Source: Candidatus Methylopumilus planktonicus
GTDB lineage: Bacteria; Pseudomonadota; Gammaproteobacteria; Burkholderiales; Methylophilaceae
Length of the DNA: 32,000 nt
NCBI RefSeq assembly: GCF_006364715.1
Contig: NZ_CP040984.1
Span: 421,446-453,445 of the forward strand
Direction of reading: 5' to 3'
In this document: positions 5,241 through 19,952 of the stretch, one piece after another
Layout of the letters: each line of letters begins with the position of its first letter
Numbering within the stretch: the stretch's first letter is position 1
The notes under the pieces: generated by a model
What the model was told of the DNA's origin: nothing
What the model saw: only the letters and a program-made list of their open reading frames with translations
The model's database searches: none
Position numbers and translations under genes: made by a program

Positions 5241-6245
5241 TTAAAAATTAACCCAGGCTTTTGTTTTAATGGAGGCTTGAATTGCTTCTAATGTTTTTGT
5301 ATTCCAAAGCGCATCAACTAGAGAAAGTTTGGGCGCAGTGTTATTAATGATGCATTGATTAAAATGATCTATTTCAAGTGTAAAGTGATTAGCTTTTTCA
5401 ATACGCTCATTCTTTGAGCCATCTGCATCTGTTGTCATGGTTAATTGTGCCTCATCATTTTCATGTTGCCATACGGTATGACACATCAACTTCCCTTTAG
5501 ACCCAAAGACTTCAAATTGAGAGCGTCTCACACATTCAAAGCTAATATCAAATTGCGCACGTCGATTCAGACCAAAATCAATCATGCCCGAAGTAGTTAA
5601 ATCTGCCCCATGATCGTTAAGATGGCTTGTTGCAACAACTGATAAGGGGTTCTGATCAAAGCATTGTCGAATCGTATGAATAGCATAGGGTCCAATGTCC
5701 CAGAGAGCGCCACCACCATTTTCAATTGATCGATCGATACGATAAAAACGTGCAGGCTGGATTGGAAAAGAAAACATTGAATGCACATACTGAACATCAC
5801 CTAACAATCCTGAACTAATGATTTCTTTTATACGATCAAACTGTGGATGAAAGACATACATAAAACCTTCCATCACTTTGACATGATTTTTATCAGCCGC
5901 CTCCTGAATTAATTCAACTTCTTTTGAATGAAGCGTGATCGGCTTTTCTATGAGCACATGTTTTTTTTTATTGATTGCTTTAAGAGCGGGCTCAGTATGC
6001 TCTTCGTTCGAAAGTGGGATATAAATAGCGTCTATATCAGGATGATTAATTACTTCATCTAATGAATTGAAGGTTTGAACTTTGCCTACAAGTGCGGGCT
6101 GGTATTTTTCCAAGCATTCTGCTGCTGCATTCTGCCTCCTACTTCCAATAGCAACGAGCTCACCAAAAGGACTATTAGCAATAGCTGGAAGAAGGCGTTC
6201 ATTGACTCGCGCAGCTCCTAGAATGCCCCAACGCACTTTTTTCAT
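5241..6245 (-). CDS. Gfo/Idh/MocA family oxidoreductase
   Basis: 334 aa. The N-terminal Rossmann motif is VRWGILGAARVNERLLPAI, with EKP in LIEKPITL typical of the family. Confidence 0.88.
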   Translation of the reverse strand: MKKVRWGILGAARVNERLLPAIANSPFGELVAIGSRRQNAAAECLEKYQPALVGKVQTFNSLDEVINHPDIDAIYIPLSNEEHTEPALKAINKKKHVLIEKPITLHSKEVELIQEAADKNHVKVMEGFMYVFHPQFDRIKEIISSGLLGDVQYVHSMFSFPIQPARFYRIDRSIENGGGALWDIGPYAIHTIRQCFDQNPLSVVATSHLNDHGADLTTSGMIDFGLNRRAQFDISFECVRRSQFEVFGSKGKLMCHTVWQHENDEAQLTMTTDADGSKNERIEKANHFTLEIDHFNQCIINNTAPKLSLVDALWNTKTLEAIQASIKTKAWVNF

Positions 6246-6749: not shown

Positions 6750-7064
6750 TTATTTACGTCCGCGTTTAGGTAATACAACACCAAGTCTTTGAGCAGCCAT
6801 TTCATTATTACCTTCTGAGTCTGCTAAAACCCATCCAGTCATAAACATACGTGTCATATATTGTCTGTTGTATAAAAAAGCCACAATAACCTGCCATAGT
6901 CCCAGTGTGATAATTGAAAAAAGCATATGAAGAGCTGCAACACCTAATTCACCTCTAAAAAGCGGGACAAACCAACCAAAAAAAAGATAGGTCCAACTAA
7001 AGCCATAGTAACCAATTTTGATCATGCCCGAATTTGGATGTTTAATAATTACGGCAGTAGCCAT
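6750..7064 (-). CDS. small membrane protein (two TM helices)
   Basis: The track ORF (6750..7160) runs into the tRNA-Lys gene. The internal ATG at 7064 (MATAVIIKH...) has an AGGAA SD 6 nt upstream and avoids the overlap. Confidence 0.65.
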   Translation of the reverse strand: MATAVIIKHPNSGMIKIGYYGFSWTYLFFGWFVPLFRGELGVAALHMLFSIITLGLWQVIVAFLYNRQYMTRMFMTGWVLADSEGNNEMAAQRLGVVLPKRGRK

Positions 7065-7127: not shown

Positions 7128-7203
7128 TGGTGGGGGATGCGAGGGTCGAACTCGCGACAAACGGATTAAGAGTCCGCTGCTCTACCAGCTGAGCTAATCC
7201 CCC
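7128..7203 (-). tRNA. tRNA-Lys (anticodon CUU), the only intact copy
   Basis: The reverse complement reads GGGGGATTAGCTCAGCTGGTAGAGCAGCGGACTCTTAATCCGTTTGTCGCGAGTTCGACCCTCGCATCCCCCACCA. It forms a 76-nt cloverleaf with anticodon loop CT-CTT-AA and an encoded CCA. Confidence 0.93.
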
Positions 7204-7290
7204 AGAAAAGAACATTTTACAGTATTTGTGGGGGTTGTAGAGGGGGTAGGATTGGGGATTTTGTTGGGGCTGGAATAGGGGTGTGTTAGG
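7166..7290 (-). repeat. repeat unit copy 1: tRNA-Lys positions 1-38 plus about 87 nt of G-rich (plus strand) leader
   Basis: Matches 8525-8650, 9298-9370 and 15515-15640 in direct orientation. All copies keep CAGAAA..ATTTTACAGTA next to the tRNA 5' end (TAAAAT on the tRNA strand, a likely -10). Confidence 0.85.
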
Positions 7291-7303
7291 AAATCACCAA
7301 TAG

Positions 7304-7333
7304 TTGACAACATTGGGGGGGGGTAGATATTAT
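7304..7333 (+). promoter_or_regulatory. sigma70-type promoter TTGACA-N18-TATTAT with a G9 homopolymer in the spacer
   Basis: TTGACA at 7304-7309, G9 at 7315-7323 and TATTAT at 7328-7333. It lies upstream of the 7410 HTH gene. Confidence 0.6.
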
Positions 7334-7364
7334 CTACATGCACTGTAAAAGTGCACATTGTGAT

Positions 7365-7389
7365 GCCTATTTTGATATAGGCTTATTTT
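7365..7389 (+). terminator. weak terminator-like hairpin in the leader of the 7410 gene
   Basis: Stem GCCTAT (7365-7370) / ATAGGC (7377-7382) followed by TTATTTT. It is preceded by a second hairpin TGCAC-N7-GTGCA (7339-7355). Confidence 0.4.
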
Positions 7390-7409
7390 AACCTTATCTC
7401 ATTTTTAGC

Positions 7410-7676
7410 ATGGATAATTTTGAATATAACTTTGAGCTATTAAAAGCTACACGCTTAAGTAAAAAAATCTCAGCGCAAAGTATGGCTGCTGATTTATGTT
7501 TGGCTGAACGTCAAATCATTTCTATCGAAGAAAATAGCGTTCAATATTTTCCTTCTAAATCTCTTAAATACACCAGCTTAAAAAAATACATAGCAGCACT
7601 TGGTTTAAAAAATGAGGATGTCATCTTCAATTTTAATGAAGTTGACCCCACCCCAAGTTTGTTAAAGAAGCCATAG
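7410..7676 (+). CDS. RodZ-N-terminal-like (HTH_25-type) DNA-binding protein, paralog 1
   Basis: 88 aa with the pattern LLK.TR..K.IS....A..L.L...QI..IEEN....FP......LKKYIAALGL. It is paralogous to 17498..17764 and 20450..20836. Confidence 0.7.
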   Translation: MDNFEYNFELLKATRLSKKISAQSMAADLCLAERQIISIEENSVQYFPSKSLKYTSLKKYIAALGLKNEDVIFNFNEVDPTPSLLKKP

Positions 7677-7679
7677 AGT

Positions 7680-8069
7680 ATGCGAGCATTTGGTAATCTA
7701 TTCATTATTTTAAGTATTTTCACCTCAATACTCTTTGGACTTGAGTATTTTTCTGAAGCTACAATTGTGTTCTTAGCAGTTCTTCTGTATCTCACAGGGC
7801 ATTATGTGAGGCATAATTTTACCTATCGCAATTTTAAGATAAGCAGGCGATCAAAACCTTTTTTTGAATCAATATTAAAAAATACAATACAAGCCATTGC
7901 CTATGTAACTATCTTCATTTTTGTAGGCTACATACTCCTAAAAATCTCAAAAACTGATTTTTATCTAAATAATCTCCAAAGTTTGATGCAAAGCTCTATT
8001 GATGTAATCAATGAAATAATCAGATTTTGGATTAACTTACCTAGTCAATTAATGAAGTATGGACAATAA
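7680..8069 (+). CDS. membrane protein (variable middle gene of cassette 1)
   Basis: 129 aa with three hydrophobic helices. It starts 3 nt after the previous stop and overlaps the next gene by 11 nt. Confidence 0.55.
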   Translation: MRAFGNLFIILSIFTSILFGLEYFSEATIVFLAVLLYLTGHYVRHNFTYRNFKISRRSKPFFESILKNTIQAIAYVTIFIFVGYILLKISKTDFYLNNLQSLMQSSIDVINEIIRFWINLPSQLMKYGQ

Positions 8070-8388
8070 GCATCCTTTATTGACGAGTGCTTGTGAATAT
8101 ATAGAAATAAATCTTCATCTTAAGATTTCGATGTTAGATCTCAAGCGCCATACCAATTATTCCGAACGATCTTTACAGTTAATATTTAAAAAATACTTAA
8201 ATAAAAGTCCATTTGAATATATTGAAGAGCAAAGATTGTTAAAGGCTCACGAATTGATTAAGCAGCATAAACAATCAAAGAAAACTACTCACATTGCTAC
8301 AGAAGTAGGATTTAGACATTTAGGAAGATTCTCTGTGAACTTCAAAAAAAGGTTTGGCATTCATCCTTCAGTTTTAGCTCGATCTTAA
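8059..8388 (+). CDS. stand-alone AraC/XylS-type HTH regulator (SoxS/MarA-sized), paralog 1
   Basis: 109 aa containing only the AraC double-HTH region (LQLIFKKYLNKSPFEYIEEQRLLKAHELI...GFRHLGRFSVNFKKRFGIHPS). Confidence 0.8.
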   Translation: MDNKHPLLTSACEYIEINLHLKISMLDLKRHTNYSERSLQLIFKKYLNKSPFEYIEEQRLLKAHELIKQHKQSKKTTHIATEVGFRHLGRFSVNFKKRFGIHPSVLARS

Positions 8389-8400
8389 CTTAGAGATCAC

Positions 8401-8417
8401 CGTCAAAAATTTTGACG
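8401..8417. repeat. perfect palindrome CGTCAAAA-A-TTTTGACG at the cassette 3' boundary
   Basis: 8-bp arms. Related copies occur at 18528-18544 (degenerate) and 22705-22719, each just after a stop codon. Confidence 0.6.
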
Positions 8418-8420
8418 TTC

Positions 8421-8440
8421 GGTGTGCTTAGGTGTGCTTG
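8421..8440. repeat. tandem GGTGTGCTT x2, candidate arm-type integrase binding sites
   Basis: GGTGTGCTTAGGTGTGCTTG lies about 40-55 nt from tRNA-like relic copy 2. The same GTGYGC motif recurs next to copy 4 and the integrase at 15413-15453. Confidence 0.4.
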
Positions 8441-8477
8441 CTGATTTCAATCGAGAAAAAACTTCTATCTCTGCCAC

Positions 8478-8650
8478 TGCCTGGGTCTACTAGGGTGAGA
8501 TCTCAGAAAATTTAACTGATCTGCGAGTCCGCTGCTTGACCAGCTGAGCTAATCCCCCAGAAAAGAACATTTTACAGTATTTGTCTGGGTTGCAGAGGGG
8601 GTAGGTCGGGGGATTTTGGTAGTGGTGGAATAGGGGTGTGCTACGAAATG
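8478..8650 (-). pseudogene. tRNA-Lys relic copy 2 with a decayed 3' half, plus a leader copy
   Basis: 8525-8558 matches tRNA positions 1-34 with 2 mismatches. On the tRNA strand, 8478-8504 reads GAGATCTCACCCTAGTAGACCCAGGCA against the tRNA's GAGTTCGACCCTCGCATCCCCCACCA (about 17/27 with one gap). 8559-8650 is a copy of the G-rich leader. Confidence 0.6.
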
Positions 8651-8665
8651 CTGGTTTTTTTTAGC

Positions 8666-9271
8666 TCAAATTTCTCTAATAGCCGTGCTAATGACTTTAT
8701 AGGATGAGCGTAGCAAAAAGATTGATAGTGCTAATCCCACCACGATATCTGCCCAACCACTCTGTGTAAACCACACAATAAGTGATGCAATGATGACAGC
8801 AATATTATTTGCAATATCATTTCTTGAACATTCCCAAACAGATGACATATTAATATCTTGATCTTTGTGTTTTGTAAGCAAATACAAACAAGTTAAGTTT
8901 CCTAATAATGCTATAACACCTACAACACTCATGATTTCAAATACAGGAATCGTGTGATTGATAATATGTTGGATGACTTGAAATAAAACAAATAATGCAC
9001 CGACTAATATTAATAGTCCTTTAAATAAAGCCACTTTAGCTTTAGCTTGATTGCTCTTATAGATGACAAATAAACTTAAAGCATAAGTAATCGCATCACC
9101 TAAATCATCTAAGCTTTCTGACATCAAGCCTGTTGAATGTGACATCCAACCAGAACTAAAAACAATTAAGAACAAGAACACGTTAATCGCTAAAACGATT
9201 TTTAATGTTTTTGATTGATTTACTTTTAAGGCATCAACAGCACAGCTTTTATTTTCGCAGCAATCTGACAT
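8666..9271 (-). CDS. cation diffusion facilitator-like transporter (membrane domain only)
   Basis: 201 aa with a Cys-rich N-terminus (MSDCCENKSC), a TM2-type acidic motif SESLDDLGDA, and six hydrophobic segments. Confidence 0.6.
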   Translation of the reverse strand: MSDCCENKSCAVDALKVNQSKTLKIVLAINVFLFLIVFSSGWMSHSTGLMSESLDDLGDAITYALSLFVIYKSNQAKAKVALFKGLLILVGALFVLFQVIQHIINHTIPVFEIMSVVGVIALLGNLTCLYLLTKHKDQDINMSSVWECSRNDIANNIAVIIASLIVWFTQSGWADIVVGLALSIFLLRSSYKVISTAIREI

Positions 9272-9297
9272 TTCTTATCTTATTAAGTTGAGTTTTA

Positions 9298-9370
9298 GCT
9301 GCTCTACCAACTGAGCTAATCCCCCAGAAAAGAACATTTTACAGTAATTGTCTGGGTTGTAGGGGGTTTC
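9298..9370 (-). repeat. tRNA-Lys relic copy 3: positions 1-28 plus a truncated leader
   Basis: GCTGCTCTACCAACTGAGCTAATCCCCC has 1 mismatch to the tRNA. It is followed by AGAAAAGAACATTTTACAGTAATTGTCTGGGTTGTAGGGGG, and homology then stops. Confidence 0.75.
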
Positions 9371-9484
9371 TAATGGTGTAAATCGTATTCTAAGTTTTGT
9401 TGTGCGCAAGTGAAAGTTCAAAAACCATACACAGCGTATGGAAAAAAGTATTAGAATGATTTTAATAATTTAGAAAATACTTAA

Positions 9485-10012
9485 ATGTTTAATTGGACAA
9501 AAAACTTTTACAAAAAAGATTATTCAATACCTTTAACAATGGTTTTAGTTTTTGTTGTTTATTGGTTTGTCAAGACTGCAGTTAAGCATTCAGCCGCAAC
9601 TCCTTTCGTTTGGAGCAAAGGAATTTATGACGAAATATTTTCCATAGCGTTTGTTTTTATTTTTTTTAGAGTCGTTTTCTTAAAGACAAAATCAATACAA
9701 AAATTTATCTTCTATCAACATAGTTTTTTATGGCTTCTTACTAAAATTATTTGGTTTGTAAGTATAGTGTGGCTTTGGATTTTTCTTAGTTTTGAAATTC
9801 CAAAAATTACAACCAATATAATTTACAAAGCTACAGATTTACCTGTATATGTTATTGATCCCTGTAGTTATTGGACAGAAGAGTTGGATAGATATGCAAG
9901 TTGGACAAAGGAAGAGGAAAGTGAAGCCTTAAAATTTTGGAAAATTGATGATGTTTGGGGTTTTGATTCAAAATGCGCACCACGAGAATTTGAACGAGAT
10001 GAGCAATACTAA
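9485..10012 (+). CDS. hypothetical membrane protein
   Basis: 175 aa with three or four hydrophobic helices and an acidic C-terminal tail. No family recognised. Confidence 0.45.
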   Translation: MFNWTKNFYKKDYSIPLTMVLVFVVYWFVKTAVKHSAATPFVWSKGIYDEIFSIAFVFIFFRVVFLKTKSIQKFIFYQHSFLWLLTKIIWFVSIVWLWIFLSFEIPKITTNIIYKATDLPVYVIDPCSYWTEELDRYASWTKEEESEALKFWKIDDVWGFDSKCAPREFERDEQY

Positions 10013-10027
10013 CAAATAAAAGAATCT

Positions 10028-10426
10028 ATGTTTAATTGGCTTAAAAAAATTAGATCAAGAAAGTTGATTAAATTAGTAGTTTTAAATAATTCAGTTTTAG
10101 AAATAATAATGGATATGCAAAAAATTGGATTTGAGCAAAATTTAAAGCCTATACACGGCAATGATTTTAAAGATAGTGATGAATTTATTAAATGGTTAAA
10201 AAATCGATTTGTAATCAATCACGCTATTCTTTTAAAGTTTAAAAGAGATGGAGACATTAAAGACAAAAGCTCTGTTGATTTTATTTTAAAGTTAGATAAA
10301 GAGTTAAGGAATTGGTATCGAAAATCTTCAATTAGTATATTTCAATCATATGATGATCGATACAATAAGCCTCTAAGAGGTTGGGATGATATTTGCGAGA
10401 ATTTTTTTGATGAATTACCAAATTAA
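10028..10426 (+). CDS. hypothetical protein
   Basis: 132 aa and hydrophilic. It shares only the MFNW start with the preceding gene. No family recognised. Confidence 0.45.
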   Translation: MFNWLKKIRSRKLIKLVVLNNSVLEIIMDMQKIGFEQNLKPIHGNDFKDSDEFIKWLKNRFVINHAILLKFKRDGDIKDKSSVDFILKLDKELRNWYRKSSISIFQSYDDRYNKPLRGWDDICENFFDELPN

Positions 10427-10574
10427 ATATAGTAATTTTTCTTCACATCACATAACCAATCAAACAAATTCGTAATACCACTTTTTCAATATAAAAACCT
10501 AACGATTTTGAATCAAACAACATAATTAACAGTGTGGTCAAAAATCAAGTGCGGTTGGGAAAAAGTAGTTAGCA

Positions 10575-10754
10575 CTAAAAATTATTTGCACTTAACTTTT
10601 GTAATTGTTGCTGTATTTTTTGTTGCTTTTGTTTTTTTCTTTCAGCTTTAAGTAAATTTTGTGCATTCTTAACTTGTTTTTGCAGTGAATCAATCCGAGC
10701 CTGACTTGGAGTAAGAGGTTTTTGTGGTTTGATATTAAATTCATAAAAGCGCAT
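10575..10754 (-). CDS. hypothetical 59-aa Lys/Gln-rich protein
   Basis: Not in the ORF track. The product is MRFYEFNIKPQKPLTPSQARIDSLQKQVKNAQNLLKAERKKQKQQKIQQQLQKLSANNF. It starts 9 nt downstream of the stop of 10763..11206 on the same strand. Confidence 0.4.
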   Translation of the reverse strand: MRFYEFNIKPQKPLTPSQARIDSLQKQVKNAQNLLKAERKKQKQQKIQQQLQKLSANNF

Positions 10755-10762
10755 AACATTAT

Positions 10763-11206
10763 TTACTTTTTAAATGTGTTGCGTGTTTTTTCACTAACAC
10801 TTTCAATTGCGCTATCTAATTCACCATTAAGTACAGCATCTTTTAGTGCAATAAGCGTATCGATTAGCTCTTTTTTATCTTTAACCTCAATCGCATTGCT
10901 ACCATCCTTGTTTAGGAGGAGTGTCTTTGCCCCATACTTAATTTGTAAATTTAATTTACCGCTATCATTTACCCAATACCATTTGCGTAAACGTTTGTTA
11001 ACTTCTTTTGTATAACTTTGACCGTTTTCTTTGTTAGTATATTTTTTTTCTTTGCGCACACTATAATTACTACCATTTAATTCAGCTTTAGCTATTTCTA
11101 ATTGTTCGAATAGCTTTGTACACAACTTATTACGTTTTTGTTGTATAGGATTAATGTGTAACTGTTTTGTTGCTGTAATTAGATTTAATTTTGTAATTAA
11201 ATTCAT
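10763..11206 (-). CDS. hypothetical protein (island cargo)
   Basis: 147 aa. No catalytic motif recognised. It is divergent from 11340..11648. Confidence 0.5.
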   Translation of the reverse strand: MNLITKLNLITATKQLHINPIQQKRNKLCTKLFEQLEIAKAELNGSNYSVRKEKKYTNKENGQSYTKEVNKRLRKWYWVNDSGKLNLQIKYGAKTLLLNKDGSNAIEVKDKKELIDTLIALKDAVLNGELDSAIESVSEKTRNTFKK

Positions 11207-11339
11207 TTCATACTCCTAATGTTGTTATGTTTAGTACACATTAGTTTCTGATTTGTTAATAAAGCAAGTATTTGCCCAATCTTACCAAATAATTAGTCAC
11301 ATTTAGCCATCAATTATTATCAGTGTGCTAAATAAACAT

Positions 11340-11648
11340 ATGAATTACTACAAAGCAGACATAAAAACTAATGATTGGCTTAAATCGAATGGTATAAGTG
11401 TTAAACACTTTGCTAAAACTGATAGCCAATTACTTAAGGCTCAAAAGATAGCATTCAATTTATTAAAACATCATTTAAATTTACTAAGCACACCACAAAT
11501 TAAAACATTACGAGTGTATTGCGCACAAATGGCAAGTGATAAAAAACGAAATAAGATTACAGATAACTTTGTCTACAAAGTTCTAAATATAGGCACAAAA
11601 ATAAATCGACAACTATTTAAGGCAAATAAAGAGATAAACAACTCTTAA
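11340..11648 (+). CDS. hypothetical protein (island cargo)
   Basis: The track gives a GTG start at 11325, but the ATG at 11340 (MNYYKADIK...) is more conventional. The stop lies 2 nt before the 20-bp palindrome. Confidence 0.45.
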   Translation: MNYYKADIKTNDWLKSNGISVKHFAKTDSQLLKAQKIAFNLLKHHLNLLSTPQIKTLRVYCAQMASDKKRNKITDNFVYKVLNIGTKINRQLFKANKEINNS

Positions 11649-11650
11649 CA

Positions 11651-11670
11651 AGTATTACTTAAGTAATACT
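11651..11670. repeat. perfect 20-bp palindrome AGTATTACTTAAGTAATACT, candidate recombinase site A
   Basis: Exact inverted 10-mers. The same sequence recurs at 12873-12892 in 19/20 positions. Confidence 0.75.
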
Positions 11671-12268
11671 TTAACAAAGTGTAAAAACCCAATTTGTAAT
11701 ATGACGGCTAATGAGATTGGACTTGTATACAGTTGCTGAAAAAGCTGTATATGAATAAGGTGACCGCAGATTTGACTATGGTATGAGTAGTTTGGAAGTT
11801 TTAACACATCCGTCTTCCGTAAAATCATTTTTCAGTCGTGTACTTGCTAAACAAATACACATAACGATAGCTATGTTGCTTTTTTAAACAAAGCACATAG
11901 CCGTCGTATACCTCAAAACAAATCAAAAAAAACTAAAAAAAAATTGTGCTGAGCGATAAGCGATAGCACAAGCGAACTTTAGTTCGCTATTAATGTGTAT
12001 CTGTAATTCATATTAAGGTGCTTTAAACACATAATTTGAATTTAACTGTAAGTGCGCCCCAAATTATTCAATTAAGCGTTGTAGGGCTATGTAATTGTTG
12101 TATAAAAGCCACATAAATATAAAAAGACTAAAGATTATTGTGAAATTCTTTAGTCTTTAATGTAAGTCTTTGATTTTTGGCATATCACCCCAAACATTTC
12201 AGTCGATAGGAAAATTTTTGTAAAGAATACAAACTTATACACATATTTTATTATGTGAGGAGTTAAAA

Positions 12269-12835
12269 ATGGCACAAGCAAAATCGTTAACGCAATATGA
12301 AATCGATCAAGTACTTCGTTATGTATCAACTACACGTTATCACAAACGCAATCGTGCAATTGTGCTTACAAGTTTTTGGAGTGGTATGAGGGTGGGTGAA
12401 ATTGCTAATCTAAAAATAAGTGATATACGAAACGAAGATGGAAGTGTTAAAAGTGAAATAAGATTAACTTCAGCCCAAACAAAAGGAAAGTTTGGGCGTA
12501 CGGTGTATGTAAATGAGAAATTGCGCAGTGAATTAACTAATTATTTGGTTGGTTACAAACTGATTGAACCAAGTGCACCATTATTTAAAACAGAAAAAAA
12601 CAAAGCGTTCAGCCCAAACACTTTAACGCAATGGTTTTTTTGGATGTATAAAAAAGCTGCGGTGAGTGGGGCAAGTAGTCATAGTGGACGCCGTACTTTT
12701 ATTACTACATTGGCTCAGAAGGGGGTAGGGGTGCGGGTTTTAGCCAAGCTAGCTGGGCACCGCTCTATATCCATTACACAGGTCTATATTGATGTAAACG
12801 CTGATATGATGCGTAAAGCAGCGGAGCTCATATAA
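12269..12835 (+). CDS. small catalytic-domain-only tyrosine recombinase (FimB/FimE-sized)
   Basis: 188 aa. Arg-I context is GMRVGEIANLKISDI, H-x-x-R is in HSGRRTF, and H...Y is in GHRSISITQVY. An SD (GAGGAG) lies 7 nt upstream. Confidence 0.85.
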   Translation: MAQAKSLTQYEIDQVLRYVSTTRYHKRNRAIVLTSFWSGMRVGEIANLKISDIRNEDGSVKSEIRLTSAQTKGKFGRTVYVNEKLRSELTNYLVGYKLIEPSAPLFKTEKNKAFSPNTLTQWFFWMYKKAAVSGASSHSGRRTFITTLAQKGVGVRVLAKLAGHRSISITQVYIDVNADMMRKAAELI

Positions 12836-12853
12836 AAAAGTCATACTTCTACA

Positions 12854-12936
12854 AGTATTACCTAAAAATATCAGTATTACTTAAGTAATACCTCTTTTAG
12901 TGATCTTAATAAGTAATACTTAATTTAGTATTACTT
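12854..12936. repeat. cluster of AGTATTACTT arms: half-site, 19/20 palindrome (site B), and a 10-6-10 inverted pair (site C)
   Basis: AGTATTACCT at 12854-12863; AGTATTACTTAAGTAATACC at 12873-12892; AAGTAATACT-TAATTT-AGTATTACTT at 12911-12936. Confidence 0.75.
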
Positions 12937-14100
12937 TTTACTTTTTGATTTCAACTTTTTTTTAGCCGCAGATCGCTCTCCTCTGCTGTTATATATGAAA
13001 TTTTGAAAATCTAACTCATCTTCAAATCTTGCCGCCTGTTGCTTGTCAGCCCTCAATTGGTGGGCTTTCAGAGCCTCTTCTTCCCCAGCCTCTTGTAGTC
13101 TATGTTGTAGCTCTTCGGCCCAAATTTTCTCTTCTTTTTCTCTGATTTCATTTTCGAAGTGATCAACTTTACTAACAATAAATTTGGCAAATCGGTTTAC
13201 TATCAACTCATCTAATTCAAGATTTGGGGGGAGAATTGCATTGATGTGTAAATCTGCGTAATCACTTTCTCTGTCAAATTTTCTTACTCCTGTCCCCAAC
13301 ATTACACACATTGAATTATTTTGACTGAGATAGTTTTGTAAATGACGTGCAAGCATTGTTGTAGTTGCAAATGGTTTAACTTCTCGTATTTCTAAATATT
13401 TCATAATTACAATACGAGCCCGAGCCAATCTTTCCTTATATGTTTCAGCTTGCTGTAATTCAAGTTGGCTGAGTTGCACTGCTCCAGTAATTGTTATCTC
13501 ACTAATCCATTTAGTAAAATCCTCAATTTTAATATCAGAATGTTTTGCAACTTGTAATACAGAGCCGTATTTAAAAATTTGAGCTGTACCTATATCACCA
13601 AATATAAATCTAATAATTAGTGATGCGTCAGGTGTATTAGATTGTACTTTGACGTTATGTTCTTTAAACAGCTCTCTTATTTTTGCGTATAAAAAATCAC
13701 CATTCTCAGCATTTTCTGCTTCAATAAAAATTGAATAAGCTTCACTAATAGCTTGATATCTTTGTTTTCTAAATGCTTCTTTAGCAATATTGTATTTTTT
13801 TCGAACAGCAATGATTCTTTTTAACCAATCATTTACTTGCTGTTCTTGTAGCTTCATTTTATTTTCCCACTCCGCTAATCTTTGTTTTGATGTGTCATTA
13901 AGAATAATCGGATTTGCTTCACGCTCTTTGCGCATCTGTTCTGATGCTTTACGAATTGTTTCAAAACGTTCTAATATGTCTGGGGGGAGCGTTGATTTTA
14001 ATTTTGCTAAATTAGATTTAGCATTAGCTGTTCGTGTTTGTTTTTTTTGTGGGAGTTTAGATTTATTATTTGCTTTCTTTATCGCCATAATGTAGTCCAT
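12931..14100 (-). CDS. hypothetical coiled-coil protein adjacent to the integrase
   Basis: 389 aa with Lys/Glu-rich predicted coiled-coil N- and C-terminal regions around a central globular part. No motif recognised. Its stop codon lies inside recombinase site C. Confidence 0.55.
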   Translation of the reverse strand: MDYIMAIKKANNKSKLPQKKQTRTANAKSNLAKLKSTLPPDILERFETIRKASEQMRKEREANPIILNDTSKQRLAEWENKMKLQEQQVNDWLKRIIAVRKKYNIAKEAFRKQRYQAISEAYSIFIEAENAENGDFLYAKIRELFKEHNVKVQSNTPDASLIIRFIFGDIGTAQIFKYGSVLQVAKHSDIKIEDFTKWISEITITGAVQLSQLELQQAETYKERLARARIVIMKYLEIREVKPFATTTMLARHLQNYLSQNNSMCVMLGTGVRKFDRESDYADLHINAILPPNLELDELIVNRFAKFIVSKVDHFENEIREKEEKIWAEELQHRLQEAGEEEALKAHQLRADKQQAARFEDELDFQNFIYNSRGERSAAKKKLKSKSKK

Positions 14101-14134
14101 TTATAGTTGATAAAGAAACTTTAGCATAGGTAAA

Positions 14135-15373
14135 TTAACTTTCAATTAGTTTTCGAGTTGCTAATCCACTTAATTGTTCAATTGCTTTTACAGCATCTAA
14201 GTGACTGTAATGTTTTTCAATCATTACAACTGATGTTCCCATTTGTTTTGCTAACGTGTGTATGTTTACGTTGTCATACGTCAATGCAAACGTAGCATAA
14301 GTGTGTCGTATGCTGTAAAACGAACGTGGTTTAAGTGTAATAGGGCAAATAAGCAACTTCATTTCTTTTAAATAACCAATAAACATTCTAAAAAAACTAC
14401 TTGGCTTAACCATTTTAGGTATTTGATTTAATTTTCCATTACGTTTACTGCAAAATTCTATATATCGAAAGATGTAATCTTGTTTATTTGCATTTAGTAT
14501 ATCTTCTAACGACATATTAAAATTACGTTCTGCAATTCTACGCAGAGCTTGTATTGTTGGCTCACGAGCGATTGCACGACGTTCGCCTGTTTTACTTTTC
14601 TGTATGTTAAAAATTAAATTGTGTTCGTTAGCAAATTTAATATTGCTCCATTTCAATTCAAACAACTCACGTCCAGGACGTGCACCTGTGTCTAATAAAA
14701 TAATCACATAGTCTTTTAATAGATAACGTAGTTGCATACTGTGTGTTTTTGCTTTTTGTATCCAACTATCAAATCCACTCATCATCTTTTTAATTTCTTC
14801 TAAACTAAACTCGACACGACGTTCACACTTTGCACCTTTTGCAACTAACACAGGACGCTGTGCTTCAGTCATATAGCCGTGCAATACAGCTTCATCAAAT
14901 ACACGTTTAAGCGCAGCATTGTGATTTAGTATAGTGCTCCGTTTAGGAACTTTACCCATTTTTTTAATACGAAACTTTTCTAACAACTCTAATTCTTTTA
15001 ATTTAATTTGTTCGACTGACAAGTTGCCAAGCACGGGAGTTAGATAACTTCTAATTATCATTGAGTAATCTTTGTAAATTGCTTTACCTTCATTCTGTGC
15101 AATTTCATTTTCAATTCTTTGCATTGCTAATTTTGCAACATCCTTAAATTTTTTTGACACAGGAGCGATGTTTAATTTATCTCGCACGTGTGCTTCAATT
15201 AAAATCATATTCGCACTTTGTATTGCACTTTCTAATGTGTATTCATTTGTCGAGCAACGTATCCACTCATCTTTAATTTTGTATCGACATTGCCACTTGT
15301 CACTGTTCGCTCGCTTAAACACAATTAGTTTGCGTTTAATTACTTCGTGTGTAGTTTCTATACGCTCTCTCAT
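14135..15373 (-). CDS. tyrosine-type site-specific integrase
   Basis: 412 aa. The Arg-I context is TGARPGRELFELKWSNI, with IRHTYATFAL and a C-terminal IEKHYSHL (catalytic Tyr). It lies next to a tRNA-like relic. Confidence 0.88.
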   Translation of the reverse strand: MRERIETTHEVIKRKLIVFKRANSDKWQCRYKIKDEWIRCSTNEYTLESAIQSANMILIEAHVRDKLNIAPVSKKFKDVAKLAMQRIENEIAQNEGKAIYKDYSMIIRSYLTPVLGNLSVEQIKLKELELLEKFRIKKMGKVPKRSTILNHNAALKRVFDEAVLHGYMTEAQRPVLVAKGAKCERRVEFSLEEIKKMMSGFDSWIQKAKTHSMQLRYLLKDYVIILLDTGARPGRELFELKWSNIKFANEHNLIFNIQKSKTGERRAIAREPTIQALRRIAERNFNMSLEDILNANKQDYIFRYIEFCSKRNGKLNQIPKMVKPSSFFRMFIGYLKEMKLLICPITLKPRSFYSIRHTYATFALTYDNVNIHTLAKQMGTSVVMIEKHYSHLDAVKAIEQLSGLATRKLIES

Positions 15374-15412
15374 TGCAAAAGCGTAATTTCATAACACACA
15401 AAGAGCAATCAA

Positions 15413-15453
15413 AAGTGCGCATAAGGTGTGCAAGTTAAAAAAGTGTGCGATTG
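15413..15453. repeat. three direct GTGYGC(R)A repeats between int and relic copy 4, candidate arm-type sites
   Basis: AAGTGCGCA, AGGTGTGCA and AAGTGTGCGA fall within 41 nt. The motif is shared with 8421-8440. Confidence 0.45.
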
Positions 15454-15480
15454 AAAAGTAGTGATGCCATAGAAACAGCG

Positions 15481-15640
15481 TGGCTGTAGGATGGGGTGAC
15501 TCTGAACAACGTTTTTAAGAGTCCGCTGCTCTACCAGCTGAGCTAATCCCCCAGAAAGTGATATTTTACAGTAATTGTGGGCGTTGTAGAGGGGGTAGGT
15601 GGGGGGATTTTGGCAGGGGTGGAATGGGGGTGTGTTGAAA
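15481..15640 (-). pseudogene. tRNA-Lys relic copy 4 (perfect 5' 38 nt, decayed 3' half) plus a leader copy
   Basis: 15515-15552 is identical to tRNA positions 1-38. On the tRNA strand the continuation is AAACGTTGTTCAGAGTCACCCCATCCTACAGCCA against the tRNA's TCCGTTTGTCGCGAGTTCGACCCTCGCATCCCCCACCA, with ordered blocks CGTT, GAGT, ACCC, CATCC and CCA. 15553-15640 is the G-rich leader. Confidence 0.65.
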
Positions 15641-15643
15641 AGC

Positions 15644-16393
15644 TCAATTACACTTCCAAATTGTAAATTCACTTTCTGGGCTATTTGGGGTAATTAAAAC
15701 TGTAAATCGATTTGAAGTGGCTCGAGTTACTAAAATGCCATAATCAATCAAAGAGTTTTTTGCTGCTAATTTTTCGGCAGTTTCCCAAACATGGTCCAAA
15801 TTTTTTACGTATGTAAAAATATATGCATTAAATTTATTTTTTACTTTTGGATCAATTCGAACCAAATGAACATGCAGCTGATTTTGACTGCGATGAGTTT
15901 TTGGATTTACTGCTAAAGCTATTAAATTTGGCTCAATAATTTTTTTAGAGGTTTCCCACGCAAATTGCCAGATTTCTTCTTGACGCCTTATATCTTCAAT
16001 CCCTGTCACCTCTGATCTAGGCATTGTTAAACCATGAATAAAGTCTTTAGAACAACCACACATTTTAATGTCTCGAATAGAAACAAATTGTTCATTTTCA
16101 GACCAAATTTCAGTAGTATTTTTGCAGTCTTGAGGATTTCCACAACTACTATCAATTCTAGGAGATACACATTGATTGCAATAATTTTGAGTTTTTGGAT
16201 TTATGCATTGCGTGGCAATATTTAATAGGATATCGCTTCTAGAAATTTCTAGCGCAAAACTTGGATAAATTGATCCAAGTAAAAGAATAACAAGAATAGA
16301 GCGTTGTATTTTTTTTACTATTTCGAGATAACTAATTATTTGTTTTTTTAAAAAAAATAAATGATAAAAAGAGGCTGAAATTTTTTTATACAT
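15644..16393 (-). CDS. cdh: CDP-diacylglycerol pyrophosphatase family protein
   Basis: 249 aa. AVNPKTHRSQNQLHVHLVRIDPKV matches the Cdh HIT-like motif (INS..GRTQNHFHIHISCIRPDV in E. coli Cdh). It has an N-terminal hydrophobic anchor or signal. Confidence 0.75.
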   Translation of the reverse strand: MYKKISASFYHLFFLKKQIISYLEIVKKIQRSILVILLLGSIYPSFALEISRSDILLNIATQCINPKTQNYCNQCVSPRIDSSCGNPQDCKNTTEIWSENEQFVSIRDIKMCGCSKDFIHGLTMPRSEVTGIEDIRRQEEIWQFAWETSKKIIEPNLIALAVNPKTHRSQNQLHVHLVRIDPKVKNKFNAYIFTYVKNLDHVWETAEKLAAKNSLIDYGILVTRATSNRFTVLITPNSPESEFTIWKCN

Positions 16394-16416
16394 CTGAAAT
16401 TACCGGAGATTTTGGA

Positions 16417-16449
16417 TAAAAAAATAGGGCACCTAACTTCATGCCCTAT
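16417..16449 (-). terminator. intrinsic terminator of the fasciclin gene
   Basis: Stem ATAGGGCA (16424-16431) / TGCCCTAT (16442-16449), with a T-run on the minus strand. Confidence 0.7.
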
Positions 16450-16491
16450 TAGATTATTTCTACTTAATTTTCTCTATGACAAAATTAATTA

Positions 16492-16959
16492 TTATTTAGG
16501 CATTAAAACTGTGTCAATAACGTGGATCACACCGTTAGAGGCATCAATATCAGTTGCCGTAACTTTTGACATATTAACGACAACACCATTAGCAGTCGTA
16601 ATTTTGATTGTTTTGCCATTCACTGTTGCTACATCACCAGCTTTTACATCCTTAGCCATAATTTTTCCTGGCACTACATGGTAAGTTAAAACTGCTGATA
16701 ACTTTTCTTTGTTAGCTAATAATGCATCTAAGTCAGCTTTTGGGATTTTTGCAAACGCTTCATCTGTTGGTGCAAAAACAGTAAATGGACCTTTGCCTTT
16801 TAAAGTATTTACTAAGTCAGCTGTTTTTAGCGCTACTACTAATGTTTTAAAATTACCAGCTGCAACAGCAGTATCTACAATATCCTTAGCAGCAAAAGCT
16901 GTTAGAGATGAGATAGCTAAGATTGAGCCTATGAGAATTGATGCAAAAGTGCGCTTCAT
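16492..16959 (-). CDS. secreted fasciclin (FAS1) domain protein
   Basis: 155 aa with signal peptide [26 protein letters not shown]1 motifs are [10 protein letters not shown] and [11 protein letters not shown]. Confidence 0.88.
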
Positions 16960-17391
16960 TAATTATTCCTTTTCAGTTATTAAGATTATGTTGAGTAGAT
17001 CAACATTGATAATCTATCCAAAAAGTATTTAAGATTTGTGACAGGACATTAATATTCACAGTAATTAGTTTTTTTTATAATTAAGTTATTGTAGAATTAA
17101 TTTTGTATCAGAAGTCTCCTTAAATAACCTTCGCGAACTTATTTAATAGCCCCTTCAATGGGGCTATGTCTTGTCTAATCTCTGCACATGAAAACACTTA
17201 AAACAATTCAAAAATTTATCTCTGATTATTTGCCACTAAAAATCTCAATAGAAAATATTAGATTTATTCTTATTTTTTTAATACTCTTATTTACAGCTTT
17301 GCTTTTGGCAGGCCTCATTGAATATAACAGTAAAAACTTCTGACGGTTGTTTCAAAAAGTCGTTTAAAACGAATTTTTTTGTCATCATTAA

Positions 17392-17484
17392 CTGACATAA
17401 ATATTTCATCATAATTTCACAATCAACAGATATTGTGTAAATGTTCTCCAAAGAATACTTGCCCTCGTAATGAGGGCTTTTTTT
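17392..17484 (+). promoter_or_regulatory. conserved 93-bp promoter/leader block ending in an intrinsic terminator (copy L2)
   Basis: Starts CTGACATAAATA and ends GCCCTC-GTAAT-GAGGGC-T7. It is 77/93 identical, ungapped, to 20239-20331. Confidence 0.6.
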
Positions 17485-17497
17485 ACTAGAAATATCT

Positions 17498-17764
17498 ATG
17501 AATAAACTTGAATACAATTGTGATCTACTAAAAACTACTCGCGAAAGCAAGAAGATTACAGCACATAGTATCGCCGTTGATATATGTTTAGCTGAGCGTC
17601 AGATTAAGTCTTTAGAAGAAAATAGTCTTCAATACTTTCCCTCTCAATCCATCAAATACACAGCTTTAAAAAAATATATAGCCGCACTGGGATTAAAAAT
17701 TGATGACGTTATCGTTAACATTAATCAAATTGATCCAATACCCAGCTTATTAAAGAAGAAATAA
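17498..17764 (+). CDS. RodZ-N-terminal-like HTH protein, paralog 2
   Basis: 88 aa and collinear with 7410..7676 (for example DICLAERQIKSLEENSLQYFPSQSIKYTALKKYIAALGLK). Confidence 0.7.
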   Translation: MNKLEYNCDLLKTTRESKKITAHSIAVDICLAERQIKSLEENSLQYFPSQSIKYTALKKYIAALGLKIDDVIVNINQIDPIPSLLKKK

Positions 17765-17768
17765 GCCT

Positions 17769-18179
17769 ATGAAATTTAAATATACAATTTTGCTTTTTGC
17801 ATGGGTTATAAGTTCTTCTTTATCCCATGCGTCTGATTTCGATTCCCTGTCAGAGCTTATTCAAAAAGGTAAGGAAACCGAAGCAATTGCAAAAATTAAT
17901 CGGTATATACAAAAATACCCAAACGACCCCAAGGTAAAATTTATTTATGGGGCAACCCTTGACCATTTTGGTAGGACACAAGAAGCCAAAAAAGTTTTTT
18001 TACATTTAAATCGTAAATACCCAAATAATCCTACTATTAAGAATAATCTTGGTGTTCTCTATGCAAAGCTGGGTGAATACAGTGCTGCTTATACTTTTTT
18101 TGGATCTGCCTTGAGATTGAAACCTAATTATCAAGAAGCTAAAAATAATCAATGGCTTGTTCAACAGAAGATTAACTAA
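17769..18179 (+). CDS. secreted TPR-repeat protein (variable middle gene of cassette 2)
   Basis: 136 aa with a signal peptide ending SLSHA. TPR-like repeats include NNLGVLYAKLGEYSAAYTFFGSALRLKPNYQEA. Confidence 0.7.
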   Translation: MKFKYTILLFAWVISSSLSHASDFDSLSELIQKGKETEAIAKINRYIQKYPNDPKVKFIYGATLDHFGRTQEAKKVFLHLNRKYPNNPTIKNNLGVLYAKLGEYSAAYTFFGSALRLKPNYQEAKNNQWLVQQKIN

Positions 18180-18186
18180 TTTTTAT

Positions 18187-18516
18187 ATGAGCCAAAAAGA
18201 TCCTGTATTTTTAAGTGTATGTGAATATATACAAGCTAATGTTAAATCTAAAATCACCATGTCAAATCTTGAGAGGTACGCTGCGCTTTCTGGAAGAGCT
18301 TTACAGTTAAAATTTAAGAAATATCTAAACAAAACACCCTTTCAATACATACAAGAACAAAAGATGTTAAAGGCGCATGAGTTAATTAAGGAATATCAAT
18401 GCTCTAAAACAATCTCAGAAATTGCTCTTGAATTAAAATTTAGCCATTTAGGAAGATTTTCTGTGAACTTCAAAAAAAGGTTTGGCATTTATCCTTCAGT
18501 TTTAGCTCGATCTTGA
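18187..18516 (+). CDS. stand-alone AraC/XylS-type HTH regulator, paralog 2
   Basis: ATG 18187 (MSQKDPVF...) gives 109 aa, the same length as paralog 1. The track start at 18157 overlaps the TPR gene. The last 70 nt are 68/70 identical to 8317-8386. Confidence 0.8.
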   Translation: MSQKDPVFLSVCEYIQANVKSKITMSNLERYAALSGRALQLKFKKYLNKTPFQYIQEQKMLKAHELIKEYQCSKTISEIALELKFSHLGRFSVNFKKRFGIYPSVLARS

Positions 18517-18527
18517 TTTATCTAAAC

Positions 18528-18544
18528 CGTCAAAACTTTTTACG
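18528..18544. repeat. degenerate copy of the CGTCAAAA-N-TTTTGACG palindrome
   Basis: CGTCAAAACTTTTTACG sits 12 nt after the AraC-like stop, in the same position as 8401-8417. Confidence 0.45.
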
Positions 18545-18572
18545 CTTGTTTTAATTACTTAAAGCGACTTAT

Positions 18573-18731
18573 TTAATCTTGAAATTGCGCTCTTAGTTTC
18601 ATCAGATTCTCTCTCCATTCAGCAAGGCATTCTTCTCTCAAATACCAATAATTGAGTTCATTAGCTTCATATTGCTTATAGTCAAAAACCGATGATTTAT
18701 CTGTTGAAGTTGGATTTTCAATATCACTCAT
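18573..18731 (-). CDS. hypothetical 52-aa acidic protein
   Basis: Not in the ORF track. The product is MSDIENPTSTDKSSVFDYKQYEANELNYWYLREECLAEWRENLMKLRAQFQD. It is last in a co-directional three-gene run. Confidence 0.35.
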   Translation of the reverse strand: MSDIENPTSTDKSSVFDYKQYEANELNYWYLREECLAEWRENLMKLRAQFQD

Positions 18732-18743
18732 AAAAGATCCCTA

Positions 18744-18908
18744 TTACTTCTTTTTGCCTTTGTTAAAGTGTCGATATAAGCGATTAACGCTAACTGCCAA
18801 TATAGCTAGTACATTTAATTTCATAGGATCTAAATTACTTAAATTAAAATAAACAGCAAGACCCCACAGAATACCAATGATTGCATTTACATTTTGTTCT
18901 TTAAACAT
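18744..18908 (-). CDS. hypothetical 54-aa membrane peptide
   Basis: Not in the ORF track. The product is MFKEQNVNAIIGILWGLAVYFNLSNLDPMKLNVLAILAVSVNRLYRHFNKGKKK, with two hydrophobic stretches. It starts 17 nt after the stop of the upstream gene. Confidence 0.35.
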   Translation of the reverse strand: MFKEQNVNAIIGILWGLAVYFNLSNLDPMKLNVLAILAVSVNRLYRHFNKGKKK

Positions 18909-18924
18909 TTTATAAACCTTTCAT

Positions 18925-19299: not shown

Positions 19300-19431
19300 G
19301 TCTTACCCCCCAGAGGATAAAAAGTCTTTATTAATAAATGTCATACTAATGTCACAATAAAAGTGTAGGGAATATTTTATAAAAAAACAATATCCGCTTG
19401 CCACTTTTAAAGCACTAAATTTTAGACTTGA

Positions 19432-19538: not shown

Positions 19539-19611
19539 CGTCTGTAATATTGCCTTCATATTGAGTATTTAATATAGCTGAACACTAGAAAATATAACAA
19601 AGGTTTAAGGT

Positions 19612-19800: not shown

Positions 19801-19952
19801 ATTTTTGTCATAAAAGTTTTATATTAGTCGTGTTTAATACTCGTGAAGCTATCGGCTTCTCCTAAAAAATCTTTCTTTTATTATTAATAACCCCTGCCAA
19901 AACATTAAGGGGTTATGCCTTTATTGAAGAGTTATTTTAATGGAGAATTTAA

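Follow-up and report, generated by a model that had tools for sequence, protein, structure and literature searches.

The tRNA-Lys(CUU) gene of “Candidatus Methylopumilus planktonicus” is accompanied by partial copies that repeat its 5' half and upstream leader rather than its 3' end, which raises the question of what process could have built such an array. We analyzed a 32,000-nucleotide (nt) stretch of this genome, referred to here as the window (NCBI RefSeq assembly GCF_006364715.1, contig NZ_CP040984.1, positions 421,446 to 453,445; coordinates below count from its first letter), in which a reading made from the sequence alone (the sequence-only reading) had described the tRNA-Lys locus as a mirror-image integration and accretion site. 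The locus is an additive flexible genomic island already published as fGI-2 (PMC10872708). We think it probable that it represents a tandem array of integrative elements of reversed polarity and their remnants, inserted in the tRNA-Lys(CUU) gene and additionally reassorted by homologous recombination. Loci from other genomes and metagenomes are denoted by L numbers.

A repeated 5' half with its leader

Both ARAGORN and Rfam (70.1 bits) recognized one tRNA-Lys(CUU) gene, at 7128 to 7203 on the minus strand, and Rfam at E ≤ 0.1 returned nothing besides it between 6500 and 16500. A repeat finder delineated a 125-nt direct-repeat family with four copies, at 7170 to 7294, 8525 to 8649 (89% identity), 9292 to 9416 (66%), and 15519 to 15643 (85%), and a 30-nt probe composed of “CT” and tRNA positions 1 to 28 found exactly four matches in the window (0, 2, 1, and 0 mismatches), compared with a shuffle expectation of 0. 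All three partial copies, here called relics B, C, and D, lie upstream of the intact gene and are co-oriented with it. Their tRNA portions comprise positions 1 to 34 with two D-arm mismatches (relic B, 8525 to 8558), positions 1 to 28 with one mismatch (relic C, 9298 to 9325), and positions 1 to 38 with 38/38 identity (relic D, 15515 to 15552); probe and alignment thus reproduce the coordinates, lengths, and mismatches of the sequence-only reading. The 42-nt 3' half of the tRNA occurs once in the window, with no second copy found when up to three mismatches were permitted, in agreement with the earlier statement that the 3' end is not repeated.

Aligned in tRNA orientation, all four copies also have in common an upstream leader of about 90 nt containing an invariant ACTGTAAAAT. 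Leader A, in front of the intact gene (7204 to 7294, minus strand), and leader D (15553 to about 15640), which together with tRNA positions 1 to 38 makes up unit D (15515 to 15643, minus strand), both contain a promoter-like TCTACA-16-TAAAAT, in leader A as a promoter scan match running from 7241 to 7214; promoter and terminator calls here and below are consensus matches. Unit B (8525 to 8649, minus strand) consists of leader B (8559 to 8649) and positions 1 to 34, followed by a 9-nt insertion in the loop. In unit C (9298 to 9416, minus strand), leader C (9326 to 9416) is well conserved only from 9326 to about 9370, so that good conservation is limited to about 45 to 70 nt, and it precedes positions 1 to 28. 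Relic C therefore has no anticodon loop, the loop of relic B is interrupted, and positions 1 to 38 are kept in relic D alone, contrary to the earlier proposal that each relic keeps the core sequence. On the other side of the intact gene, a co-oriented gene for a 104-amino-acid (aa) membrane protein (6750 to 7064, minus strand) lies 63 nt after the tRNA; the exact protein was found in 1046 blocks of the collection and has tRNA-Lys as its neighbor in every complete “Ca. Methylopumilus” genome among the matches.

Empty and differently filled sites in close relatives

Contig L002 matches window positions 17184 to 15515 at 99.76% identity and is joined there directly to the 3' half of the tRNA, which is followed by the downstream flank known from the window. 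Its gene order is a CDH-like gene, the leader of relic D, an intact tRNA gene, and the shared flank, with no array between. Unit D and the tRNA unit have no exact stretch in common that is longer than about 50 nt, and since the assembler worked with a much larger k, 141, a chimeric join in L002 is unlikely. Three complete genomes (L003, L005, and L006) likewise have single-unit sites. Other relatives are filled differently: L004, L007, and L009 have two units each, L008 has four units and no integrase, and in L001 a distal flank like that of the window (99.2% identity) is followed by a relic and then by another cassette. The two units of L009 enclose one 5.2-kb element whose integrase, again located after the distal relic, is 98.8% identical to that of the window, and L165 provides a further filling. 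An empty site or different fillings were what the sequence-only reading had suggested looking for in close relatives, and from them we conclude that the tRNA gene is polymorphic for insertion of the array.

The same comparison bears on the origin of the working gene. Leader A is unlike the leader at the empty site of L002, whereas leader D is the same leader that precedes the intact tRNA there. The intact gene (7128 to 7203) is therefore an attachment junction of the attR type, with a native 3' half and an array-derived 5' half, and unit D is an attL-type junction retaining the pre-insertion leader. The array thus supplies the leader and 5' half of the working gene, as the sequence-only reading had proposed for the functional tRNA, and relic D is the displaced earlier copy. 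The comparison fits one-step arrival or loss of a whole 8.4-kb composite equally well as a series of stepwise insertions. Hence the earlier idea of a growing array is upheld as accretion at one site, but it does not require four stepwise insertions; nor does growth require cores in the relics, because the rebuilt tRNA is itself the target.

An integrase family with two polarities

The window encodes a 412-aa tyrosine integrase (14135 to 15373, minus strand) with matches to PF00589 (36.7 bits versus a cutoff of 27.1; E = 4.7e-9) and to the phrog_1 integrase family (E = 1.3e-29). Its residues R232, K261, R356, H357, and Y389 are invariant in a 17-sequence integrase alignment, as expected of a tyrosine recombinase. 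The gene starts 142 nt beyond relic D, in the same orientation, which bears out the earlier remark that the integrase stands beside the most distal relic. The intervening element-side arm between crossover and integrase gene (15374 to 15514, minus strand), which begins AAACGTTGTTCAGAGTC and which we refer to as the type I start, is identical in L009, L165, and L102; the L165 integrase, like that of L009, is 98.8% identical to the window integrase. More than 2000 homologues were retrieved at E ≤ 1e-10, mostly from freshwater metagenomes. An exact-protein look-up matched no contig, a PDB sequence search gave no match, and NCBIfam had no match for this protein.

Using the 17-sequence alignment, we fetched 80 genome loci of integrase relatives and mapped their tRNA genes and tRNA fragments. 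About 34 of the 80 loci are canonical, in that a full, co-oriented tRNA gene (Lys-UUU, Lys-CUU, Met, Phe, Leu, or Gln) precedes the integrase gene by 120 to 250 nt; contigs of sufficient length additionally contain, several kilobases downstream of the integrase, a 3' fragment whose first base is position 30 to 33 (e.g., L024, L026, L036, L053, L072, L077, L089, and L097). Reversed loci, in which a 5' fragment comprising positions 1 to 38 lies directly upstream of the integrase gene, are the window, L009, and the Methylophilaceae metagenome-assembled genome (MAG) loci L020 (Lys-UUU), L021, and L071 (Lys-CUU), such that homologues next to 5' duplications, which the sequence-only reading had suggested searching for, do exist. 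The full tRNA gene lies 5 to 8 kb downstream in L020, L071, L009, and the window, and the L021 contig ends too soon to include it. In L020, L071, and L009, relic and full gene share 45 to 105 nt of leader plus positions 1 to 38 and diverge right after the loop TTAA. In the window, the 3' half is unique and the integrase gene stands beside a 5' fragment, which sets the locus apart from a canonical 3'-regenerating element.

In a neighbor-joining tree, calculated without support values, the reversed integrases (window, L009, L020, and L021) form one clade that is nested in the canonical family as sister to the canonical tRNA-Lys integrases; L071 was left out because its reading frame is interrupted. 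The tree and the fragments together show that the reversed geometry is a real, clade-specific property derived inside an otherwise canonical integrase family. The side and orientation of the integrase gene are the same in both polarities; the change between them is in which flank of the element attachment site (attP) carries tRNA sequence.

The two polarities also point to the place of strand exchange. The canonical fragments share identity from positions 30 to 33 onward and the reversed fragments as far as position 38, so that the two overlap in the anticodon loop alone. We infer that strand exchange, or the overlap region, falls within the 7-nt anticodon loop (positions 32 to 38), flanked by the inverted arms of the anticodon stem. 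The anticodon loop is a classical sublocation for integration into tRNA genes.

Two further loci of this family deserve mention in their own right. In L020, the tRNA-Lys(UUU) gene (17552 to 17627) is apparently used from both sides, with the reversed element upstream (5' fragment at 9829 to 9866, beside the integrase) and a 3' fragment comprising positions 54 to 76 at 21106 to 21128, 3.5 kb downstream, as from a canonical 3'-end island. In L057 (Polynucleobacter sp. UK-Mo-2m-Kol15), a group I intron (Rfam RF00028, 56.8 bits, 5463 to 5684) interrupts the anticodon loop of a tRNA-Met(CAT) gene at 5439 to 5731 that ARAGORN did not call, and an extra 5' fragment of the same tRNA-Met lies about 230 nt upstream; the pattern recurs in L058 to L063 and L066.

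Proposed mechanism

We propose that the attachment site of a reversed element would consist of a copy of the tRNA upstream region of about 90 nt, including the promoter, and tRNA positions 1 to 38, situated upstream of the crossover, with the integrase gene just downstream of it, and that the tyrosine integrase would exchange strands within loop positions 32 to 38. Upon insertion, the old leader and 5' half would be left as a dead relic beside the integrase gene, and the leader and 5' half of the element would be joined to the native 3' half, giving a working tRNA gene. Because the rebuilt gene would again be a full target, later arrivals would insert there, pushing earlier elements upstream. 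Units without an integrase would be decayed or hitch-hiking cassettes, and the repeats, at least 125 nt in length, would allow homologous recombination and gene conversion to reassort cassettes and to render the repeats mosaic. In this scheme, activity of the leader promoters, current activity of the 412-aa integrase, and the order of events in the window array are all presumed.

Units and cassettes in metagenomes

A metagenome scan for the promoter plus 5'-end pattern returned at least 120 contigs; together with the loci described above, this gave at least 198 units, 173 of them usable, and the counts that follow describe this sample, as listed. They include at least 133 relics versus at least 40 intact genes, with at least 36 cassette-start types among the relics and a unit spacing of 0.5 to 8 kb. 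The intact gene is the last unit in 15/15 contigs that have both kinds of unit. Identity with the tRNA ends at position 38 or 39 in most relics, at position 34 in a family with a 9- to 10-nt loop insertion (type II, with at least 22 occurrences of its start), at position 31 in another family, and at position 28 in the type associated with a CDF transporter gene. Most cassettes have no integrase, and three start types lead directly into a co-oriented integrase gene, two of the 412-aa family (clusters 5 and 8) and one P4-like (cluster 11). In L165, the window-type integrase element is nearest to the tRNA and two integrase-less cassettes are distal, an order opposite to that of the window and the one expected for a recent insertion.

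From about position −88 onward, empty-site genomes and cassettes have homologous leaders; among at least 152 distinct variants, conservation of the leader is highest at AACACACCCCTATTCCA and in the promoter. We considered phased C-runs in cassette leaders as element-specific integrase arm sites or as G-quadruplex recombination signals; this was rejected because the native leader at empty sites has homologous sequence.

A different origin for the repeats would be a native family of complete tandem tRNA-Lys genes that lost their 3' halves in all but one case while other genes accumulated between them. Some relic-adjacent sequences do resemble decayed 3' halves: the 141-nt type I arm between relic D and the integrase gene has a weak likeness (shuffle z = 3.0, p = 0.012), the L117 type start has a stronger one (z = 4.0) and ends in CCACCA, and the Stouffer Z over the 36 cassette-start types is about 3, versus −1.2 for a reversed-sequence control, which constitutes a weak hint for some types. 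Terminator hairpins also follow some relics, as they follow real tRNA genes (clusters 4, 14, and 23). The likeness is, however, weak or absent in most types, only 5/36 having z > 2, such that the notion of each relic as a whole decayed tRNA gene, and of attP as a full pseudo-tRNA, was dropped; where present, it is equally explained by attachment sites descended from canonical ones bearing the 3' half, and in the type I arm it would weakly fit descent from a canonical attP, a point on which we do not rely. A native family is further contradicted by the single gene in the 99.8%-identical relative that has no array, by the single unit in three complete genomes, and by array contents that differ between near-identical strains. 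No contig listed has more than one intact tRNA-Lys gene, and relatives with four native tandem genes, which the sequence-only reading had named as the observation that would overturn it, were not found. We regard this origin as barely credible.

A circular contig with a second integrase lineage

Contig L013 (JGI 3300071642, Ga0620606_008547) is 7486 nt in length with an exact 127-nt terminal overlap, corresponding to a circle of about 7.36 kb. Its integrase is P4-like (Arm-DNA-bind_3 plus PF00589), spans the contig junction, and is directly preceded by a unit made up of a leader and tRNA positions 1 to 39; the contig further encodes AlpA, an AAA_25 protein, an HMA protein, and a CDF cassette with a truncated relic. 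This is the arrangement expected of the excised form of a reversed element, and it is supportive rather than proof. Judging from its sequence, a second, unrelated integrase lineage appears to use the same kind of reversed site. L013 also demonstrates that the CDF cassette can be internal cargo of an integrase-bearing element; by analogy, elements B and C of the window, or its whole 8.4-kb array, may be one composite. The sequence-only reading had pointed to excised circles as a check; L013 may be one for the P4-like integrase, and none of the contigs surveyed is a circle of the 412-aa type.

Homologous recombination among the repeats

A multibase D-arm variant, AAAGGGTCAAGC, has nine different upstream and seven different downstream neighbors among the listed units and never occurs in an intact gene. 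Proximal-leader variants reassort as well, and the attR of L165 combines the proximal leader of its own attL with the distal leader of the element. In the first 19 loci, variants of the 5' half (T17 and TCAAGC) seemed to be tied to the cassette downstream of them; this did not hold in the larger survey, as T17 is present in 9/40 listed intact genes and the 5'-half variants mix with all neighbors. Since most cassettes have no integrase and the repeats are mosaic, homologous recombination also reshuffles the array, and the variants clearly indicate that it and gene conversion act on the repeats as well, a contribution absent from the sequence-only account.

As a separate observation, forms GCTCAAAGGGTCAAGC or GCTCAGAGGGTCAAGC of the D-arm variant are present in relics only (including L015, L115, L140, L146, L154, L156, L165, and L180) and in none of the 40 listed intact genes.

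Could the island have been built and turned over by RecA-mediated homologous recombination only, with the repeats acting as anchors after DNA uptake and the integrase as a passenger? The predominance of integrase-less cassettes would fit, as would the leader and D-arm variants that reassort independently of both neighbors, the CDF module that reassorts although its upstream relic has no loop, the host-type proximal leader on the L165 attR, and the inverted regulator cassette of L007. Such a process does not account for the sharp end of tRNA identity that most relics, belonging to many cassette types unrelated to one another, have at position 38 or 39, for three integrase types each directly downstream of that boundary and co-oriented, or for the fragments of canonical relatives that start at positions 30 to 33, so that the shared segment is the anticodon loop alone. 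Nor does it account for the attP-integrase arrangement of the circular L013, and it leaves the origin of the first extra copies of leader and 5' half unexplained. We therefore consider recombination as the sole agent unlikely.

A number of observations nevertheless weigh against integrase-driven insertion as the origin of the array. The regulator cassette can face either way with respect to the tRNA, which site-specific insertion alone cannot produce. The integrase element of the window is the most distal unit, and the unit on its right-hand side, relic C, has no loop; the element thus cannot excise alone, and simple stepwise insertion fails to explain the order in the window. Integrase genes are rare, at least six full-length genes and at least three fragments of the 412-aa family being counted in about 140 contigs, and no circle or attP of the 412-aa type was found among the contigs surveyed. 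The circle of L013 carries an integrase of the other lineage, and its assembly graph could likewise have been closed by a tandem duplication. Pfam and PHROGs recognized no excisionase in element C, and the promoter calls are consensus matches only.

Cargo of the array

The DNA between the repeats had been described as a regulator cassette, a CDF transporter, and an integrase-bearing element, and Pfam calls agree. Cassette A (7295 to 8524), which has no integrase and includes the conserved type II start adjoining relic B, encodes an HTH_25 protein (7410 to 7676), a 129-aa membrane protein (7680 to 8069), and an AraC-type regulator (8059 to 8388), all on the plus strand; it also adjoins the tRNA in L004 (88.5% identity) and is inverted relative to the tRNA in L007. 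Cassette B (8650 to 9297, minus strand) carries the gene for a 201-aa CDF cation-efflux protein (8666 to 9271; PF01545, E = 6e-24), which begins 27 nt after relic C and is co-oriented with the promoter-like site of relic C. This CDF module is a discrete unit of 766 to 767 nt that occurs in seven arrays behind different upstream neighbors, with a loop-less relic upstream of it.

The 6.2-kb segment between relics C and D is occupied by element C, whose cargo (9417 to 14134) has a G+C content that drops to 0.28 to 0.30 and ends in a terminator-like hairpin (9425 to 9441, minus strand) just upstream of leader C. Beside the 412-aa integrase, it encodes a DUF6641 protein (10763 to 11206, minus strand), a 188-aa tyrosine recombinase that consists of a catalytic domain only and resembles the FimB/FimE invertases (12269 to 12835, plus strand), and a 389-aa protein (12931 to 14100, minus strand). 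Pfam and PHROGs suggested no function for the 389-aa protein or for two proteins of 175 and 132 aa, and PHROGs suggested none for a 107-aa open reading frame (ORF).

An integron-like platform may be envisaged in which a trans-acting integrase moves integrase-less cassettes at loop sites and the tRNA promoters of the relics drive the downstream cassette. Cassettes are indeed discrete and short (0.5 to 7 kb), with conserved units at their borders; relics show almost no variation in the −10 element; and the integrase, CDF, CDH-like, OYE-like, and UmuC-like genes follow closely behind a relic, in its orientation. General expression of cassettes from relic promoters was rejected, however, since about two-thirds of the cassette types examined have either a first gene that is antisense to the promoter of the relic or a terminator behind the relic. 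Several relics have no intact loop. The window has no IntI-type integrase, the best NCBIfam score being 39.2 bits (for the 188-aa recombinase) versus a cutoff of 265; it has no attC-like sites, its repeats being tRNA derived; and the part of the published study considered here reports that no bona fide integrons were found (PMC10872708). We thus judge an integron-like platform very unlikely.

A related and more speculative idea, which we consider distinctly unlikely, is that the units of leader and 5' half serve as a cassette platform of streamlined Methylophilaceae, in which an integrase of either unrelated lineage would act in trans at anticodon-loop sites and the duplicated promoters would express co-oriented cassettes; reversed polarity might then be favored because canonical insertion would part the tRNA from its linked downstream gene. 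If true, half a tRNA gene would here have given rise to a system that functions like an integron.

Neighboring DNA and other features

Several features of the surrounding DNA are recorded here as separate observations. A 20-bp perfect palindrome, AGTATTACTTAAGTAATACT, is located in element C at 11651 to 11670, and a second copy with one mismatch at 12873 to 12892, so that the pair brackets the 188-aa recombinase; the bracketed segment may be an invertible or separately excisable unit nested in element C. The palindrome was found in none of the 219 fetched loci. Paralogues of the HTH_25/small-protein/AraC cassette (7410 to 8392), 75 to 78% identical, lie outside the array at 17498 to 18520 plus about 20462 to 20520, in the same flexible region. 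A 96-nt tandem duplicate (22898 to 23092, 83% identity, 99-nt spacing) apparently lies within coding sequence.

The distal flank of the array begins with the CDH-like gene (15644 to 16393, minus strand; PF02611), and the DNA distal to relic D (15644 to 22700) is also flexible, comprising this gene, a fasciclin gene, a TPR/AraC cassette, and many small ORFs. The region is rearranged between strains L004, L007, and L008, and in contigs of other strains a relic stands in front of the CDH-like gene, making it a cassette in its own right; therefore, the island extends beyond the interval reported for the array. Beyond relic D, the 30-nt probe detected no further copy of the 5' half in the window.

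Correspondence with fGI-2

The flexible genomic island fGI-2 of “Ca. Methylopumilus planktonicus” and “Ca. M. universalis” was described by Layoun et al. (2024, ISME J; PMC10872708). According to the parts of that paper considered here, it adjoins tRNA-Lys(ctt) at 0.4 to 0.5 Mb, ranges in size from 330 bp to 42 kb, contains repeats of ACCAGCTGAGCTAATCCCCC, and carries cargo that includes msrA and ion transporters (PMC10872708). The flanks of the window are 90 to 95% identical to the published fGI-2 genomes, and proteins of the flanking genes were matched exactly in genomes CP040974, CP040976, CP040977, and OZ2390xx/OZ2391xx. The authors named the repeat the “last 20 nt” of the tRNA (PMC10872708). 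However, ACCAGCTGAGCTAATCCCCC is the reverse complement of GGGGGATTAGCTCAGCTGGT, and GGGGGATTAGCTCAGCTGGT corresponds to positions 1 to 20 of tRNA-Lys; the repeat, which was read on the plus strand, is therefore the 5' end of the tRNA gene. The co-repeated leader and promoter, the polarity, the position of crossover, and the integrase family are not mentioned in the main-text passages considered (PMC10872708).

The published account of this island, a major flexible one in an abundant freshwater bacterium, is thereby corrected, its repeat being the 5' end of the tRNA with a promoter, and fGI-2 gains a concrete mechanism with a predicted 7-nt crossover. A reversed element has to bring a working tRNA promoter with it, so that the spread of such elements would place expression of a host tRNA under element-supplied control, which is testable in cultured strains.

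Comparison with known systems

The polarity of the array is rare but known, and we see no new class of mobile element here. The Islander database lists 159 islands with a 5' tDNA fragment versus 3760 with a 3' fragment, out of 3919 in total; 2083 islands use an anticodon-centered site, and the Islander filters accept an upstream 5' fragment (Hudson, Lau and Williams 2015, PMC4383910). The reversed polarity claimed by the sequence-only reading is thus borne out by the clade-specific 5' fragments but is not unprecedented. Like the 5'-fragment minority in Islander, the window holds a tyrosine-integrase island with a predicted anticodon-centered crossover and an intact tDNA with co-oriented 5' fragments upstream (positions 1 to 34, 1 to 28, and 1 to 38), and the island is precisely absent from close relatives (L002, L003, L005, and L006). 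What our analysis adds to that source is a polarity that is derived in one clade, a second, unrelated integrase at the reversed site, the co-duplication of a promoter-bearing leader of about 90 nt, and dozens of integrase-less cassette types at the site, cassettes which the Islander requirements for an integrase and a 2-kb size would discard (PMC4383910).

The nearest relatives for comparison are the canonical elements of Polynucleobacter, Gallionella, Methylophilaceae, and Rhodobacterales, whose integrases are 36 to 50% identical to that of the window. They share with it the co-orientation, the distance of 120 to 250 nt between tRNA and integrase, the predicted loop crossover, and tandem arrays (L023). 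The difference is that canonical elements keep the host 5' half and promoter and supply positions 32 to 76, whereas the window clade supplies the leader and positions 1 to 38 and leaves a 5' fragment behind. Sister clades that use the same anticodon-loop site with opposite polarity offer a natural comparison for how integrases come to use one tRNA half or the other.

Tycheposons of Prochlorococcus, as described in the part of the preprint considered here (Hackl et al., bioRxiv 10.1101/2020.12.28.424599), follow the same model, in which insertion takes place at the island tRNA and newcomers displace older elements. The likeness extends to the accumulation of degenerate elements and partial tRNAs, the rarity of integrases relative to islands, and the streamlined planktonic hosts (10.1101/2020.12.28.424599). 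The window element has the tRNA-specific recombinase and the proximal insertion of a tycheposon, but of the PICI-like or replication module (helicase, primase) that marks tycheposons, no helicase or primase was detected with Pfam and PHROGs; L013 carries AlpA and AAA_25. A Methylophilaceae tycheposon island has been published at another locus, tRNA-Met (fGI-3), according to the passages considered (PMC10872708).

Integrase-less segments bounded by att sites are also familiar from Streptococcus thermophilus, where the cis-mobilizable elements (CIMEs) of ICESt1 and ICESt3 stand in tandem with an integrase-bearing element and could be excised together with it. Flanking units are present in the window as in CIME accretion, but relic C has no loop and the loop of relic B contains an insertion. 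Measured against the literature compared here, the corrected polarity of fGI-2, the co-duplicated promoter-bearing leader, the clade-level switch of polarity, the second integrase lineage at the reversed site, and the scale of integrase-less cassette diversity appear to be new.

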